Shown in pieces: positions 1,534 through 7,964 of a DNA stretch of 8,264 nucleotides; position 1 is the stretch's first letter; the number at the start of each line of letters is the position of its first letter. The stretch lies in IMG/VR virus record IMGVR_UViG_2529292759_000009; one strand, written 5' to 3'. A model generated the notes under the pieces. The model was not told the origin of the DNA. It did not search any database and saw nothing but the letters and a program-made list of their open reading frames with translations. The position numbers and the translations under genes were made by a program. This DNA comes from a virus (taxonomy: Duplodnaviria > Heunggongvirae > Uroviricota > Caudoviricetes).

Positions 1534-1538
1534 ATACA

Positions 1539-1565
1539 GGCGGGCGGATTGCCCGCCTTTTCTTT
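1539..1565 (+). terminator. Rho-independent terminator after G
   Basis: GGCGGGC (1539-1545) pairs perfectly with GCCCGCC (1551-1557) around a 5-nt loop (ggatt), followed by TTTTCTTT (1558-1565). It starts 6 nt after the G stop codon. Confidence 0.8.
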
Positions 1566-1661
1566 ATCTGTTGTTTCATCCACTGACCAGCCAGGTCAAA
1601 TAGCGTCTCATGTACTGCCCAACAGAAAATAGTTGCACCAATTAACCACGGAGTTAAACGG
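1566..1661 (+). promoter_or_regulatory. Intergenic region expected to hold the Ogr-dependent late promoter of the FI operon (PF-like)
   Basis: It lies between the G terminator and the FI start, where P2 has its PF late promoter. There is a TGT-N12-CCA element at 1572-1589 (one mismatch to the TGT-N12-ACA Ogr consensus as I recall it), a perfect dyad TGACC-N5-GGTCA at 1584-1598, and a -10-like GAAAAT at 1625-1630. GGAG at 1650-1653 is the FI ribosome-binding site. The exact promoter elements are not securely identified. Confidence 0.35.
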
Positions 1662-2852
1662 ATGAGTGACTATCATCACGGCGTGCAGGTGCTGGAGATT
1701 AACGACGGCACCCGCGTCATTTCCACCGTATCCACGGCCATTGTCGGCATGGTCTGCACGGCCAGCGATGCGGATGCGGAAACCTTCCCCCTCAATAAAC
1801 CTGTGCTGATTACCAATGTGCAGAGCGCAATTGCAAAGGCCGGTAAAAAAGGCACGCTGGCGGCATCGTTGCAGGCCATCGCCGACCAGTCAAAACCGGT
1901 CACCGTTGTCGTGCGTGTGGAAGACGGCACCGGCGACGATGAAGAAACGAAACTCGCGCAGACCGTTTCCAATATCATCGGCACCACTGACGAAAACGGT
2001 CAGTACACCGGACTGAAAGCCCTGCTGGCGGCGGAGTCGGTAACCGGTGTTAAGCCGCGCATTCTCGGTGTGCCGGGACTGGACACCAAAGAGGTTGCCG
2101 TCGCACTGGCATCAGTCTGTCAGAAGCTGCGCGCTTTCGGGTATATCAGCGCATGGGGCTGTAAAACCATTTCTGAGGTGAAAGCCTACCGCCAGAATTT
2201 CAGCCAGCGTGAGCTGATGGTCATCTGGCCGGATTTCCTCGCATGGGATACGGTCACCAGTACTACCGCCACCGCGTATGCCACCGCCCGTGCGTTGGGG
2301 CTGCGTGCCAAAATCGACCAGGAGCAGGGATGGCATAAAACGCTGTCCAACGTCGGGGTGAACGGTGTTACCGGCATCAGCGCATCTGTATTCTGGGATT
2401 TGCAGGAGTCCGGCACCGATGCTGACCTGCTGAACGAGTCAGGCGTCACAACGCTGATTCGCCGCGACGGTTTCCGCTTCTGGGGTAACCGTACCTGCTC
2501 TGATGACCCGCTGTTCCTCTTTGAAAACTACACCCGCACCGCGCAGGTGCTGGCCGACACGATGGCTGAGGCGCACATGTGGGCGGTGGATAAGCCCATC
2601 ACCGCAACGCTGATTCGCGACATCGTTGACGGCATCAATGCCAAATTCCGTGAGCTGAAAACAAACGGCTATATCGTGGATGCGACCTGCTGGTTCAGCG
2701 AAGAATCCAACGATGCGGAAACCCTCAAGGCCGGAAAACTGTATATCGACTACGACTATACCCCGGTGCCTCCTCTTGAAAACCTGACCCTGCGCCAGCG
2801 TATTACTGATAAATACCTGGCAAATCTGGTCACCTCGGTTAACAGCAATTAA
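1662..2852 (+). CDS. FI: Contractile tail sheath protein (P2 gpFI)
   Basis: 396-aa ORF starting MSDYHHGVQVLEINDGTRVISTV..., with sheath-family length and sequence character. The start is preceded by GGAG 8 nt upstream. The gene order sheath-tube-chaperone-tape measure follows. Confidence 0.93.
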   Translation: MSDYHHGVQVLEINDGTRVISTVSTAIVGMVCTASDADAETFPLNKPVLITNVQSAIAKAGKKGTLAASLQAIADQSKPVTVVVRVEDGTGDDEETKLAQTVSNIIGTTDENGQYTGLKALLAAESVTGVKPRILGVPGLDTKEVAVALASVCQKLRAFGYISAWGCKTISEVKAYRQNFSQRELMVIWPDFLAWDTVTSTTATAYATARALGLRAKIDQEQGWHKTLSNVGVNGVTGISASVFWDLQESGTDADLLNESGVTTLIRRDGFRFWGNRTCSDDPLFLFENYTRTAQVLADTMAEAHMWAVDKPITATLIRDIVDGINAKFRELKTNGYIVDATCWFSEESNDAETLKAGKLYIDYDYTPVPPLENLTLRQRITDKYLANLVTSVNSN

Positions 2853-2864
2853 GGAGCCTGACCG

Positions 2865-3383
2865 ATGGCAATGCCGCGCAAACTCAAATACATGAATGTC
2901 TTTCTGAACGGCTACAGCTATCAGGGCGTTGCAACGTCCGTCACGCTGCCAAAACTGACCCGTAAGCTCGAAAATTATCGCGGTGCGGGGATGAACGGCA
3001 GCGCACCGGTAGACCTCGGCCTTGATGACGATGCGCTGTCAATGGAGTGGTCGCTCGGGGGGTTCCCGGATTCGGTTATCTGGGAGCTTTACGCTGCAAC
3101 CAGTGTTGATGCCGTACCGATTCGTTTTGCTGGTTCTTACCAGCGCGACGATACCGGCGAAACGGTGGCCGTCGAAGTGGTCATGCGTGGGCGTCAGAAA
3201 GAAGTCGACACCGGAGAGGGTAAACAGGGAGAGGATACCGAATCGAAACTCCCGGTGATTTGTACTTATTTCCGGCTGACGATGGACGGTAAGGAGCTGG
3301 TCGAAATCGACACCATCAACATGATTGAGAAGGTGAACGGCGTCGACCGGCTGGAGCAACACCGCCGTAATATCGGCCTGTGA
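2865..3383 (+). CDS. FII: Tail tube protein (P2 gpFII)
   Basis: 172-aa ORF starting MAMPRKLKYMNVFLNGYSYQGVATSV.... AGGAG at 2852-2856 overlaps the FI stop and lies 8 nt before the ATG. Position immediately after the sheath gene fits a tube protein. Confidence 0.92.
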   Translation: MAMPRKLKYMNVFLNGYSYQGVATSVTLPKLTRKLENYRGAGMNGSAPVDLGLDDDALSMEWSLGGFPDSVIWELYAATSVDAVPIRFAGSYQRDDTGETVAVEVVMRGRQKEVDTGEGKQGEDTESKLPVICTYFRLTMDGKELVEIDTINMIEKVNGVDRLEQHRRNIGL

Positions 3384-3391
3384 TTTTCATA

Positions 3392-3410
3392 CGGTCAGCC
3401 AGGCTGACCG
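3392..3410 (+). other. Perfect inverted repeat (RNA hairpin) in the FII-E intergenic region, with no U-tract
   Basis: CGGTCAGCC (3392-3400), A, GGCTGACCG (3402-3410): 9-bp perfect arms, or 8 bp with a 3-nt loop. It lies 9 nt after the FII stop and is followed by gttaaccctg, not a T-run. Confidence 0.5.
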
Positions 3411-3439
3411 GTTAACCCTGATTCAGAAGTGAGAAAAAC

Positions 3440-3715
3440 ATGAACAAAGAAAATGTCATTACCCTGGACAATCCGGTCAAACGTGGTGAGCAGGTTATCG
3501 AACAGGTCACGCTGATGAAACCTAATGCCGGGACGCTTCGCGGAGTCAGTCTGGCTGCGGTCGCGAACTCCGAAGTCGATGCACTGATTAAAGTGCTGCC
3601 GCGCATGACGGCACCGATGCTGACCGAGCAGGAGGTCGCCGCGCTGGAGCTGCCTGACCTTGTGGCGCTGGCCGGTAAGGTGGTCGGTTTTTTGTCGCCG
3701 AACTCGGTGCAGTGA
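3440..3715 (+). CDS. E: Tail assembly chaperone gpE (zero-frame product)
   Basis: 91-aa ORF MNKENVITLDNPVKRGEQVIEQV...VVGFLSPNSVQ ending at TGA 3713-3715. It sits between the tube and tape measure genes, where the tail chaperone pair is found. Confidence 0.9.
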   Translation: MNKENVITLDNPVKRGEQVIEQVTLMKPNAGTLRGVSLAAVANSEVDALIKVLPRMTAPMLTEQEVAALELPDLVALAGKVVGFLSPNSVQ

Positions 3716-3867
3716 CGTTTCCGAAAAATCTCTCGGTCGATGACCTGATGGCGGATGTGGCAGTGATATTTCACTGGCCGCCATCAGAACTGTATCCCAT
3801 GAGCCTGACCGAACTCATCACATGGCGCGAAAAGGCGCTCCGGCGAAGCGGAAACACGAATGAGTAA
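3440..3867 (+). CDS. E+E': Tail assembly chaperone gpE+E', made by a programmed -1 ribosomal frameshift at 3688-3694
   Basis: The slippery heptamer T TTT TTG (3688-3694) sits in zero-frame codons GGT TTT TTG. After a -1 slip, reading continues from 3694 (GTC) through 57 codons, VAELGAVTFPKNLSVDDLMADVAVIFHWPPSELYPMSLTELITWREKALRRSGNTNE, to TAA at 3865-3867. That gives 142 aa, overlapping the T start (ATG 3860) by 8 nt. This matches the P2 E/E' arrangement as I recall it. Confidence 0.8.
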
Positions 3868-6307
3868 CAATGTAAAATTACAGGTATTGCTCAGGGCTGT
3901 TGACCAGGCATCCCGCCCGTTTAAATCCATCCGTACAGCGAGCAAGTCGCTGTCGGGGGATATCCGGGAAACACAAAAATCACTGCGCGAGCTGAACGGT
4001 CACGCATCCCGTATTGAGGGATTTCGCAAGACCAGTGCACAGCTCGCCGTGACTGGTCATGCACTTGAAAAGGCTCGGCAGGAAGCCGAAGCCCTTGCCA
4101 CACAGTTTAAAAATACCGAACGACCGACCCGTGCTCAGGCGAAAGTGCTGGAATCCGCAAAGCGTGCGGCGGAGGACTTACAGGCGAAATATAACCGCCT
4201 GACGGATTCCGTTAAACGCCAGCAGCGGGAACTGGCCGCTGTGGGAATTAATACCCGCAATCTTGCACATGATGAGCAGGGACTGAAAAACCGTATCAGT
4301 GAAACCACCGCACAGCTTAACCGTCAGCGTGATGCGCTGGCGCGTGTCAGTGCGCAACAGGCAAAACTTAACGCAGTCAAACAGCGTTATCAGGCCGGAA
4401 AGGAACTGGCCGGAAATATGGCCTCAGTGGGCGCTGCCGGTGTGGGGATTGCGGCGGCGGGAACGATGGCCGGTGTTAAGCTGCTGATGCCAGGTTATGA
4501 GTTTGCGCAGAAAAACTCAGAATTGCAGGCCGTGCTCGGTGTGGCAAAAGACTCCGCCGAAATGGCTGCACTACGCAAGCAGGCGCGTCAGCTCGGCGAC
4601 AATACCGCAGCCTCGGCAGATGATGCAGCCGGTGCGCAGATTATTATTGCGAAAGCCGGTGGGGATGTTGATGCCATTCAGGCGGCAACGCCGGTCACGC
4701 TGAATATGGCACTGGCGAATCAGCGGTCGATGGAAGAAAACGCCGCCCTGCTGATGGGGATGAAATCCGCCTTTCAGCTTTCAAACGATAAGGTCGCTCA
4801 TATCGGGGATGTTCTCTCCATGACGATGAACAAAACCGCCGCCGATTTTGACGGTATGAGCGATGCGCTGACCTATGCCGCACCTGTGGCAAAAAATGCC
4901 GGTGTCAGCATTGAAGAAACCGCCGCAATGGTCGGGGCGCTGCATGATGCAAAAATTACCGGTTCAATGGCGGGGACGGGAAGCCGTGCCGTGTTAAGCC
5001 GCCTGCAGGCACCGACGGGAAAAGCATGGGATGCACTGAAAGAGCTTGGTGTGAAAACCTCAGACAGTAAGGGAAACACCCGGCCAGTATTTACCATTCT
5101 GAAAGAAATGCAGGCCAGTTTTGAGAAAAACCGGCTCGGTACTGCCCAGCAGGCTGAATACATGAAAACCATTTTCGGGGAGGAGGCCAGCTCAGCCGCC
5201 GCCGTGCTGATGACTGCCGCCTCAACCGGAAAGCTGGACAAACTGACCGCTGCGTTTAAAGCCTCAGACGGAAAGACCGCAGAGCTGGTAAATATCATGC
5301 AGGACAACCTCGGCGGTGACTTTAAGGAGTTTCAGTCCGCTTATGAGGCGGTGGGGACTGACCTGTTTGACCAGCAGGAAGGCGCACTGCGTAATCTCAT
5401 GCAGACAGCCACAAAGTATGTGCTAAAACTCGACGGCTGGATCCAGAAAAACAAATCACTGGCGTCAACCATCGGCCTCATTGCCGGTGGCGCACTGGCG
5501 CTGACTGGCATCATCGGTGCCATTGGTCTTGTAGCCTGGCCGGTTATCACCGGCATCAATGCCATTATCGCGGCAGCAGGCGCAATGGGGACAATCCTCA
5601 CGACGGTTGGCAGTGCTGTTATGACCGCTATTGGGGCGATTAGCTGGCCGGTTGTGGCTGTGGTGGCCGCCATTGTCGCCGGGGCGTTGCTTATCCGTAA
5701 ATACTGGGAGCCTGTCAGCGCATTCTTTGGCGGTGTGGTGGAAGGGCTGAAAGCGGCATTTGCGCCGGTGGGGGAACTGTTCACGCCACTTAAGCCGGTG
5801 TTTGACTGGCTGGGAGAAAAGTTACAGGCCGCGTGGCAGTGGTTTAAAAACCTGATTGCCCCGGTTAAAGCCACACAGGACACCCTGAACCGTTGCCGTG
5901 ACACGGGCGTCATGTTCGGGCAGGCACTGGCTGACGCGCTGATGCTGCCGCTTAATGCGTTCAACAAACTGCGCAGTGGTATTGACTGGGTACTGGAAAA
6001 ACTCGGTGTTATCAACAAAGAGTCAGACACACTTGACCAGACCGCCGCAAGGACTAATGCCGCCACGTATGGCACCGGTGGTTATATTCCGGCGACCAGC
6101 TCTTATGCAGGCTATCAGGCTTATCAGCCGGTCACGGCACCGGCTGGCCGCTCTTATGTAGACCAGAGTAAAAACGAATATCACATCAGCCTGCCGGGTG
6201 GTACTGCGCCGGGGACACAGCTTGACCGCCAGTTACAGGATGCGCTCGAAAAATACGAGCGGGATAAACGTGCGCGCGCCCGTGCCAGCATGATGCATGA
6301 CGGTTAA
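3860..6307 (+). CDS. T: Tail length tape measure protein (P2 gpT)
   Basis: 815-aa ORF with a charged, Ala/Gln/Arg/Lys-rich, coiled-coil-like N-terminal third (...KRAAEDLQAKYNRLTDSVKRQQRELAAVG...). A long Gly/Ala/Ile-rich hydrophobic stretch is encoded at about 5456-5695. Location after the frameshifted chaperone pair is typical of tape measure genes. Confidence 0.93.
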   Translation: MSNNVKLQVLLRAVDQASRPFKSIRTASKSLSGDIRETQKSLRELNGHASRIEGFRKTSAQLAVTGHALEKARQEAEALATQFKNTERPTRAQAKVLESAKRAAEDLQAKYNRLTDSVKRQQRELAAVGINTRNLAHDEQGLKNRISETTAQLNRQRDALARVSAQQAKLNAVKQRYQAGKELAGNMASVGAAGVGIAAAGTMAGVKLLMPGYEFAQKNSELQAVLGVAKDSAEMAALRKQARQLGDNTAASADDAAGAQIIIAKAGGDVDAIQAATPVTLNMALANQRSMEENAALLMGMKSAFQLSNDKVAHIGDVLSMTMNKTAADFDGMSDALTYAAPVAKNAGVSIEETAAMVGALHDAKITGSMAGTGSRAVLSRLQAPTGKAWDALKELGVKTSDSKGNTRPVFTILKEMQASFEKNRLGTAQQAEYMKTIFGEEASSAAAVLMTAASTGKLDKLTAAFKASDGKTAELVNIMQDNLGGDFKEFQSAYEAVGTDLFDQQEGALRNLMQTATKYVLKLDGWIQKNKSLASTIGLIAGGALALTGIIGAIGLVAWPVITGINAIIAAAGAMGTILTTVGSAVMTAIGAISWPVVAVVAAIVAGALLIRKYWEPVSAFFGGVVEGLKAAFAPVGELFTPLKPVFDWLGEKLQAAWQWFKNLIAPVKATQDTLNRCRDTGVMFGQALADALMLPLNAFNKLRSGIDWVLEKLGVINKESDTLDQTAARTNAATYGTGGYIPATSSYAGYQAYQPVTAPAGRSYVDQSKNEYHISLPGGTAPGTQLDRQLQDALEKYERDKRARARASMMHDG

Positions 6308-6321
6308 GGAGGTGACGAAAA

Positions 6322-6801
6322 ATGATGCTCGCGTTAGGTATGTTTGTTTTTATGCGCCAGACGCTGCCACACCAGACCATGCAGCGTGAATCAGATTATC
6401 GCTGGCCGTCAAATTCCCGTATCGGTAAACGGGATGCCTTTCAGTTTCTCGGTGTGGGCGAGGAAAACATCACGCTTGCCGGTGTGCTTTATCCCGAACT
6501 GACCGGCGGCAAGCTGACGATGACCACGCTCAGACTGATGGCAGAGGAAGGCCGGGCGTGGCCGTTGCTGGATGGCACCGGCATGATTTACGGTATGTAT
6601 GTCATCAGCAGGGTGAGTGAAACAGGGAGTATTTTCTTTGCAGACGGCACACCCCGGAAAATTGATTTTACGCTGTCGCTCACCCGCGTTGATGAATCAC
6701 TGGCCGCGCTTTATGGCGATATCGGTAAACAGGCGGAGTCGCTCATCGGTAAGGCCGGCAGTCTGGCGACCAGATTCACAGGTATGATGGGGGCGGGATA
6801 A
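6322..6801 (+). CDS. U: Tail protein gpU (tail terminator/completion-type protein)
   Basis: 159-aa ORF MMLALGMFVFMRQTLPHQTMQRESDYRWPSN.... A strong AGGAGG Shine-Dalgarno at 6307-6312 lies 9 nt before the ATG. The stop TAA (6799-6801) overlaps the D start as TAATG. Confidence 0.9.
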   Translation: MMLALGMFVFMRQTLPHQTMQRESDYRWPSNSRIGKRDAFQFLGVGEENITLAGVLYPELTGGKLTMTTLRLMAEEGRAWPLLDGTGMIYGMYVISRVSETGSIFFADGTPRKIDFTLSLTRVDESLAALYGDIGKQAESLIGKAGSLATRFTGMMGAG

Positions 6802-7964
6802 TGCTGGATGCGCTGACATTTGATGCAGGCAGTACGCTGACGCCGGATTACATGCTGATGCTCGACAGCAGGGATATTACCGGCAATATCAGCGACCGTC
6901 TGATGAGCATGACTCTGACGGATAACCGGGGCTTTGAAGCTGACCAGCTTGATATTGAACTGAACGATGCCGACGGGCAGGTCGGGCTGCCGGTTCGTGG
7001 CGCTGTCCTGACGGTGTATATCGGCTGGAAAGGTTTTGCCCTGGTATGCAAAGGGAAATTTACCGTTGATGAGGTTGAACACCGGGGCGCGCCGGATGTG
7101 GTCACCATCCGTGCCCGGAGTGCAGATTTTCGCGGGACGCTCAATTCCCGCCGTGAAGGCTCATGGCATGACACCACGCTCGGCGCGATTGTTGAGGCGA
7201 TTGCCTCCCGTAACAGGCTGGAAGCCAGTGTCGCGCCGTCACTGGCCGGAATTAAAATCCCGCACATCGACCAGTCGCAGGAGTCAGATGCGAAATTCCT
7301 GACCCGTCTTGCTGAACGCAACGGCGGTGAGGTGTCGGTAAAAATGGGAAAACTGTTGTTTCTCAAAGCGGGGCAGGGGGTGACGGCCAGCGGTAAAAAA
7401 ATCCCGCAGGTCACCATCACCCGCAGCGACGGCGACCGCCATCATTTTGCGATTGCTGACCGTGGAGCCTATACCGGCGTAACGGCAAAGTGGTTACACA
7501 CCAAAGACCCGAAACCGCAAAAGCAGAAGGTAAAACTGAAACGCAAAAAGAAAGAAAAACACCTGCGCGCACTGGAGCACCCGAAAGCGAAACCGGTCAG
7601 GCAGAAGAAAGCGCCTAAAGTACCGGAAGCGCGCGAAGGTGAATACATGGCCGGTGAGGCTGATAACGTTTTTGCCCTGACTACGGTATATGCCACGAAA
7701 GCGCAGGCCATGCGCGCCGCTCAGGCGAAGTGGGATAAACTGCAACGGGGCGTAGCGGAGTTCTCCATCAGCCTGGCTACCGGTCGGGCAGATATTTACA
7801 CGGAAACACCGGTTAAAGTGTCAGGCTTTAAGCGCGTCATAGACGAGCAGGACTGGACAATCACTAAGGTGACACACTTTCTGAATAATTCCGGCTTCAC
7901 GACGTCCTTAGAACTTGAGGTAAGGCTTTCTGATGTGGAGTACGAAACAGAAGATAATGAGTGA
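6801..7964 (+). CDS. D: Tail protein gpD (P2 'late control gene D' family)
   Basis: 387-aa ORF MLDALTFDAGSTLTPDYMLMLDSRDITGNISDRL.... The ATG overlaps the U stop by one base, suggesting translational coupling. It contains an internal lysine-rich segment encoded at about 7503-7625. Confidence 0.9.
   Translation: MLDALTFDAGSTLTPDYMLMLDSRDITGNISDRLMSMTLTDNRGFEADQLDIELNDADGQVGLPVRGAVLTVYIGWKGFALVCKGKFTVDEVEHRGAPDVVTIRARSADFRGTLNSRREGSWHDTTLGAIVEAIASRNRLEASVAPSLAGIKIPHIDQSQESDAKFLTRLAERNGGEVSVKMGKLLFLKAGQGVTASGKKIPQVTITRSDGDRHHFAIADRGAYTGVTAKWLHTKDPKPQKQKVKLKRKKKEKHLRALEHPKAKPVRQKKAPKVPEAREGEYMAGEADNVFALTTVYATKAQAMRAAQAKWDKLQRGVAEFSISLATGRADIYTETPVKVSGFKRVIDEQDWTITKVTHFLNNSGFTTSLELEVRLSDVEYETEDNE

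Follow-up and report, generated by a model that had tools for sequence, protein, structure and literature searches.

A conserved hairpin between the tube gene FII and gene E of a P2-like phage: an ortholog of phage 186 tI and a probable leaky terminator

The spacer between the tube gene FII and gene E in a P2-like late tail operon encodes an RNA hairpin that is conserved among enterobacterial P2-like phages and that, as judged by position, sequence and structure, is the P2-lineage ortholog of the phage 186 element tI. In the mRNA of the late tail operon, we propose, the hairpin probably serves as an attenuator, or leaky factor-independent terminator of low strength, and would thereby set the ratio of the tail proteins; it possibly doubles as a 3'-end stabilizer. 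The 186 tI ortholog and the leaky-terminator strategy (PMC9163698) are already known, and the P2-lineage member, previously unannotated, is new.

The window, i.e., the whole 8,264-nt stretch of DNA that was analyzed, comes from a P2-like (Peduovirus) phage or prophage, is 95–97% identical to Yersinia phage L-413C, P2 and relatives, and holds a late tail operon in which FI, FII, E/E', T, U and D were assigned from open reading frames and homology. Gene G (1006–1533; a reading frame matched to a P2-like gene) precedes the sheath gene FI (1662–2852) and the tube gene FII (2865–3383), both on the plus strand and 96–98% identical to their P2/L-413C counterparts. E (3440–3715, with E' produced via a −1 frameshift), T (3860–6307), U (6322–6801) and D (6801–7964) follow on the same strand, identified as reading frames and from the P2 and L-413C annotation. 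The operon thus consists of an upstream block of high-copy genes (1662–3383), whose mRNA segment ends with the hairpin, and a downstream block of low-copy genes (3440–7964), which we propose is reached by read-through only. According to the list of reading frames, the FII–E spacer is the sole sizeable intercistronic gap within the operon; its 56 nt (3384–3439) extend from the FII stop codon (TGA, 3381–3383), which lies 8 nt 5' of the stem, to the E start at 3440. The region 5' of FI (1565–1638, plus strand; activator site and transcription start assigned by homology) aligns with the P2 PF promoter at P2 17545–17660, where the P2 record annotates the activator site and the start site of pF, and transcripts that run into the hairpin probably start in this PF-like region. 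Directly 5' of the PF-like promoter and after gene G lies a canonical, bidirectional-looking terminator at 1538–1558 (AGGCGGGC...GCCCGCCT plus a T-run). The G–FI interval spans about 2.3 kb and contains Z/fun in P2, a segment missing from the window at 1533–1662.

The original prediction placed a perfect 9-bp inverted repeat right after the tube gene, within what proves to be the whole of the spacer, and the repeat is confirmed: the arms CGGTCAGCC (3392–3400) and GGCTGACCG (3402–3410) are complementary at 9 of 9 positions (100%) and 1 nt apart, and no other perfect, short-spaced inverted repeat in the 8.2-kb window reaches 9 nt. Because the arms are only 1 nt apart, the innermost pair is unable to form, and the RNA hairpin (3392–3410, plus strand) consists of 8 bp (5' arm 3392–3399, 3' arm 3403–3410) and a 3-nt loop (3400–3402). 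Six of the 8 bp are G–C, and the hairpin has the stem of a canonical terminator (GC-rich, at least 5 bp, with a loop of 3–8 nt). The folding energy, which had been suggested as a check, was predicted at −14.1 kcal/mol for 3388–3414 with dangling ends (z = −4.6; none of 200 shuffles equally stable), while the hairpin in its 71-nt context gave z = −2.4 and the bare stem-loop −12.5 kcal/mol. Position 3391 is A in the window and C in most close relatives, a variant common to only two other distinct loci (L003 and L005); with the outer C–G pair lost in this way, the window hairpin is less stable by about 3 kcal/mol (−12.5 versus −15.8). We dropped stability alone as evidence of function, since 11% of the 52-nt windows of this GC-rich sequence hold a hairpin of equal or greater stability, and the case against chance therefore rests on conservation. 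A 7-nt complement (3405–3411/3473–3479) was taken as a chance match, and an Rfam search of 3300–3800 at a permissive E-value returned noise matches only.

Conservation was analyzed at FII–E junctions from 80 IMG/VR contigs, 80 prophages from different bacterial species and about 20 annotated phages. A hairpin of −12 kcal/mol or lower occupies 98 of 100 distinct enterobacterial P2-like FII–E spacers (median −15.8 kcal/mol; FII identity 65–100%), at a distance of 3–10 nt from the stop codon (median 7) in these 98 relatives and with stems of 7–12 bp across the family. The spacer outside the hairpin diverges freely, and the flanks are wholly different between lineages. In a MAFFT alignment of 87 sequences, standard pairs fill 83% of cells versus 13–43% when the 3' partners are slid, and none of 500 column shuffles equaled the alignment in paired fraction or covariation score; stem conservation with compensatory changes in P2-like phages, another of the checks initially proposed, is thus found. 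The pair formed by columns 21 and 36 occurs as U·G in 48 sequences, C–G in 28 and U–A in 10, with one unpaired; columns 16 and 40 appear as C–G (62), G–C (9) and A–U (2), and columns 15 and 41 as A–U (17), C–G (17) and G–C (4). When applied to 70 whole spacers, RNAalifold recovered the FII–E hairpin as the sole helix.

The form of the stem also defines the strand on which it acts. P2 itself carries CCGGTCAGCC-T-GGCTGGCCGG, and the commonest state in the family is the U·G wobble; owing to these wobbles the arms usually form no DNA palindrome, which points to a structure formed by the sense-strand RNA of the operon and not to a DNA dyad bound by protein. The RNA hairpin is more stable on the sense strand than on the antisense strand in 62 lineages, and the reverse holds in 14. 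The hairpin has been lost in a Yersinia aldovae prophage, where the 29-nt spacer is without a stem (L155 2017–2051), and in Halomonas phage vB_HboP_4908, where the 69-nt spacer holds no stable hairpin (L173 1211–1285), so that it is dispensable in some backgrounds.

More distant relatives carry other elements at the tube/E-like junction. Hairpins that are unrelated in sequence and lack a U-tract are present in Fels-2/RE2010 (GGCGCGG/CCGCGCC), Aeromonas LPM4, Burkholderia SBP10a and a Ralstonia phage, and textbook terminators in Mannheimia 1127AP1, Vibrio MAR and Xanthomonas FoX5. Those of Mannheimia 1127AP1 and Xanthomonas FoX5 were annotated as rho-independent by the depositors, and that of Vibrio MAR lies 3' of an additional ORF that is inserted behind the tube gene. 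Since the homologs of E, T, U and D are essential, according to the P2 and L-413C records, and are situated downstream, stops after the tube gene must be leaky.

Immediately 3' of the stem, the tail GTTAACCCT (3411–3419, plus strand) consists of a degenerate U-tract (UU) and a C-run, and is G-poor like those of the relatives. The T-run of a canonical terminator is absent, as originally noted (3 T in 9 nt; 2–3 T in the first 8 nt), and a consensus terminator scan of the window did not call the FII–E site. When a U-tract is defined as at least 5 T within 8 nt, beginning 0–2 nt past the stem, 22 of the 98 distinct relatives possess one, which would class them as intrinsic terminators, and the window copy does not. 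Across 43 de-replicated lineages, the first 8 nt of the tail contain 3.5 T versus a background of 1.5 and 0.5 G versus 2.3, and CCC falls within 10 nt of the stem in 21 of the 43, versus a background of 8.5%. The tail is, family-wide, a degenerate U-tract that is T- and then C-rich and depleted in G, and that of the window's clade (UUAACCC) marks the weak end of the range. The C-run is found 5–8 nt 3' of the stem, at 3415–3417 in the window and in homologous tails (L093–L168), and also in the distant Ralstonia phage. By making the RNA:DNA hybrid stronger, the C-run could keep the terminator leaky. Because an rC-rich tail without a T-run should disfavor release, intrinsic termination at the window copy could be very inefficient.

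A named counterpart exists in phage 186, whose GenBank record (NC_001317) describes 15906–15932 as "tI; partial terminator of pJ transcript", a hairpin TGACCGGTCAGCACTGCTGGCCGGTTA between genes I (tube) and H (E homolog). In the 87-sequence alignment, the window hairpin aligns column for column with 186 tI (L001), the core GG(T/C)CAG...CTG(G/A)CC being conserved and its changes compensatory. The location agrees as well, with the window hairpin (3392–3410) between the FII stop and the E start on the sense strand, and the stem-loops are homologous in both sequence and structure. The partial terminator role of 186 tI is the depositors' annotation, and the corresponding role of the window copy is putative. 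The suggestion that such an element had not been described for P2 agrees with the P2 RefSeq record, which annotates no feature at FII–E and places the F-operon terminator after ogr; for the family at large it does not stand, given the precedent of 186 tI. A full-text literature search found no report of a partial terminator at a tail-tube gene.

Transcript levels are available for the 186-like prophage BTP5 of S. Typhimurium D23580, as a TPM table covering 17 conditions (Owen et al. 2020, PMC7067206 supplement). BTP5 is linked to the hairpin through gene and spacer lengths identical to those of Salmonella phage SEN1, which carries a 186-type hairpin. In these gene-level values from uninduced lysogens at low TPM, the median tube/sheath ratio is 1.01, while E is lower than the tube gene in 17 of 17 conditions, with a median E/tube ratio of 0.42 (0.30–0.57 where the tube gene exceeds 10 TPM). 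The drop of about 2.4-fold thus coincides exactly with the tube–E junction, and T, U and D amount to about 0.2 of the tube gene; E and T co-vary with the tube gene (r = 0.89 and 0.77 on logs). The authors likewise describe an abundant BTP5 transcript that ends with the tube gene (PMC7067206). A second step-down, from about 0.56 of the tube gene at E' to about 0.2 at T (D23580 3372435–3375021), is unexplained by the FII–E hairpin, and the upstream tail-fiber assembly gene is 4–10 times as abundant as the sheath gene. At 3667–3695 of the window, a weak G·U-rich hairpin with a T6 run (−14.6 kcal/mol, z = −1.95) appeared terminator-like in the scan; it coincides with the slippery sequence TTTTTTG of the E/E' −1 frameshift marked in the P2 record, and does not resemble a transcription stop because E' RNA in BTP5 is no lower than E RNA. 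The tube gene in the SEN1 record (KT630644.2) is annotated with 201 nt (15412–15612; L084 1276–1476) versus about 519 nt in relatives, so that the record may contain a frameshift or a wrongly called start.

Based on these observations, we propose the following mechanism. RNA polymerase would start at PF and transcribe FI and FII, and the GC-rich stem would form 8 nt past the FII stop. With a tail of merely UU followed by A/C residues, a fraction of the polymerases would release, and the others would read into E, T, U and D. Transcripts ended at this site, together with any 3' ends that decay creates from the downstream side, would carry a 3' stem-loop, which should also shield the FI–FII segment from 3' exonucleases. 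The net result would be an excess of sheath and tube mRNA over the mRNA for the chaperone, the tape measure, U and D. In the P2 tail, the copy ratio of the sheath and tube proteins to the chaperone, tape-measure, U and D proteins is roughly hundreds to few, and the proposed excess of mRNA would match this ratio. Both termination at the window copy beyond mere stabilization, and its efficiency, are points that we infer.

The step-down in BTP5 is equally compatible with differential decay, and the chief alternative is that the hairpin could be purely an mRNA stabilizer or decay barrier: no termination would take place, endonucleases would cut within E–T–U–D, and a 3'-to-5' exonuclease would stall at the hairpin, so that FI–FII outlives the distal part. 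The hairpin is strong, conserved and located on the sense strand, and the window copy lacks a T-run, all of which a barrier of this kind would accommodate. A decay barrier needs no special tail, yet T is enriched and G depleted in the tail throughout the family, and T-runs occur in 22 of the 98 relatives. The canonical terminators at the tube/E-like junction of distant relatives, the label of partial terminator chosen by the 186 depositors, and the presence of a single copy in the window, as opposed to a REP-like repeated family, also speak against it, and we regard a pure decay barrier as possible but unlikely. Quite unlikely, in our judgment, is a distinct, conserved type of terminator designed to leak, in which the ribosome terminating at FII would mask the 5' arm of a stem 3–10 nt past the stop, the C-run after the short UU would hold the RNA:DNA hybrid, and read-through would be tuned by FII translation or by a factor (NusA or Ogr-modified RNAP) instead of being fixed by sequence. 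The C-run and the constrained distance from stop to stem are unaccounted for by the plain leaky-terminator model, and might indicate leakiness that is tuned by translation or by a factor.

Other readings are harder to reconcile with the comparison among relatives. If the region 5' of the stem paired with the Shine–Dalgarno sequence of E, translation of E would depend on ribosomes finishing FII, and the minimum free energy fold of 3375–3445 does pair UUUUCAU (3384–3390) with GUGAGAA (3428–3434) around the hairpin. This outer pairing is unconserved: RNAalifold retains the hairpin only, and no conserved pairing involves the Shine–Dalgarno-like GTGAG and ATG of E (3427–3442, plus strand). Long-range occlusion of the E Shine–Dalgarno sequence was rejected for this reason, and translational control of E by such means appears very improbable. 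The window copy is also a perfect 19-bp palindrome, as might suit a dimeric DNA-binding protein such as a late-gene regulator, but T stands opposite G in the arms of P2 and most relatives, where pairing as U·G is possible only in the sense RNA; moreover, stem sequence and loop length vary among relatives, and the TGT-N12-ACA activator motif is absent from the hairpin site. RNase III normally needs a duplex of roughly two helical turns, and the stems of 7–12 bp fall short of a near-perfect duplex of about 20 bp, which makes an RNase III site unlikely; we judge a DNA palindrome or an RNase III processing site to be extremely improbable. The original prediction had offered a partial terminator, an RNase processing site or a 3' stabilizing stem-loop as the means of setting the sheath and tube ratio. 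This class of function is supported by the covariation, the 186 tI annotation and the drop in BTP5, and the RNase III variant is the one that the short stem disfavors. Finally, hairpins of at least equal stability in 11% of 52-nt windows would permit a functionless chance structure. The idea is refuted by the retention of the hairpin, in the same place and with compensatory changes, in 98 of 100 distinct spacers whose flanks diverge freely, and we give chance next to no credence.

A leaky terminator at this site would explain how P2-like phages obtain very different amounts of sheath and tube versus chaperone, tape-measure, U and D from a single late promoter, and the explanation probably also applies to related contractile-tail modules. 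It supplies an annotation that is absent from P2-type genomes and, for engineering of P2/P4 systems and for tailocin production, offers the hairpin as a simple handle on tail-protein stoichiometry. The conceptual gain is small: that phages place leaky terminators behind their high-copy structural genes is established, and the 186 ortholog is annotated.

Intercistronic stem-loops that stabilize mRNA are known from malE–malF (REP), papB–papA and Rhodobacter puf. As in the FII–E hairpin, they mark the 3' side of a more abundant upstream segment of a polycistronic message. Unlike REP, the FII–E hairpin is not repeated, being present as a single copy in the window and having no Rfam match, and its tail bias and the canonical-terminator homologs favor termination over a decay barrier alone. 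Within P2, the hairpin GCTGGCAC...GTGCCAGC at 8399–8417 of NC_001895 (L178) is annotated as "putative transcription attenuator; O operon". It shares with the FII–E hairpin a GC-rich stem, the lack of a U-tract and a place in a P2 late operon, and differs in sequence and in location, within lysC before R; its attenuator role is putative too. The P2 M–L spacer (99 nt; L178 5900–6000) also contains a hairpin of −15 kcal/mol.

In T7, the inefficient terminator T-phi follows the major capsid gene. Phages commonly use weak terminators to balance expression, and such terminators have been mapped in LUZ7 (PMC9163698). These elements and the proposed role of the FII–E hairpin obey the same logic, in which one promoter and a leaky stop after high-copy structural genes leave the low-copy genes to read-through, although T7 and LUZ7 are other phages with other polymerases, and there is no sequence relationship. 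With canonical intrinsic terminators (window 1538–1558, Mannheimia 1127AP1 and Xanthomonas FoX5), the FII–E hairpin shares the GC-rich stem, the short loop, the position just past a stop codon and the sense strand; in contrast to them, it lacks a U-tract, the few T being followed by a C-run, and must be leaky. The closest counterpart is 186 tI, which, like the window copy, begins 5–8 nt after the tube-gene stop, precedes the E homolog and has a 3-nt loop. Its stem is longer (12 bp, −19.8 kcal/mol, versus 8 bp and about −14 kcal/mol in the window) and has a U·G wobble at the position where the window copy has U–A, whereas the core stems (CCGGTCAGC...GCTGGCCGG in 186 tI; CGGTCAGC...GCTGACCG in the window) and the kind of tail (TTATTACCCCC in 186 tI, compared with the window tail given above) are alike.
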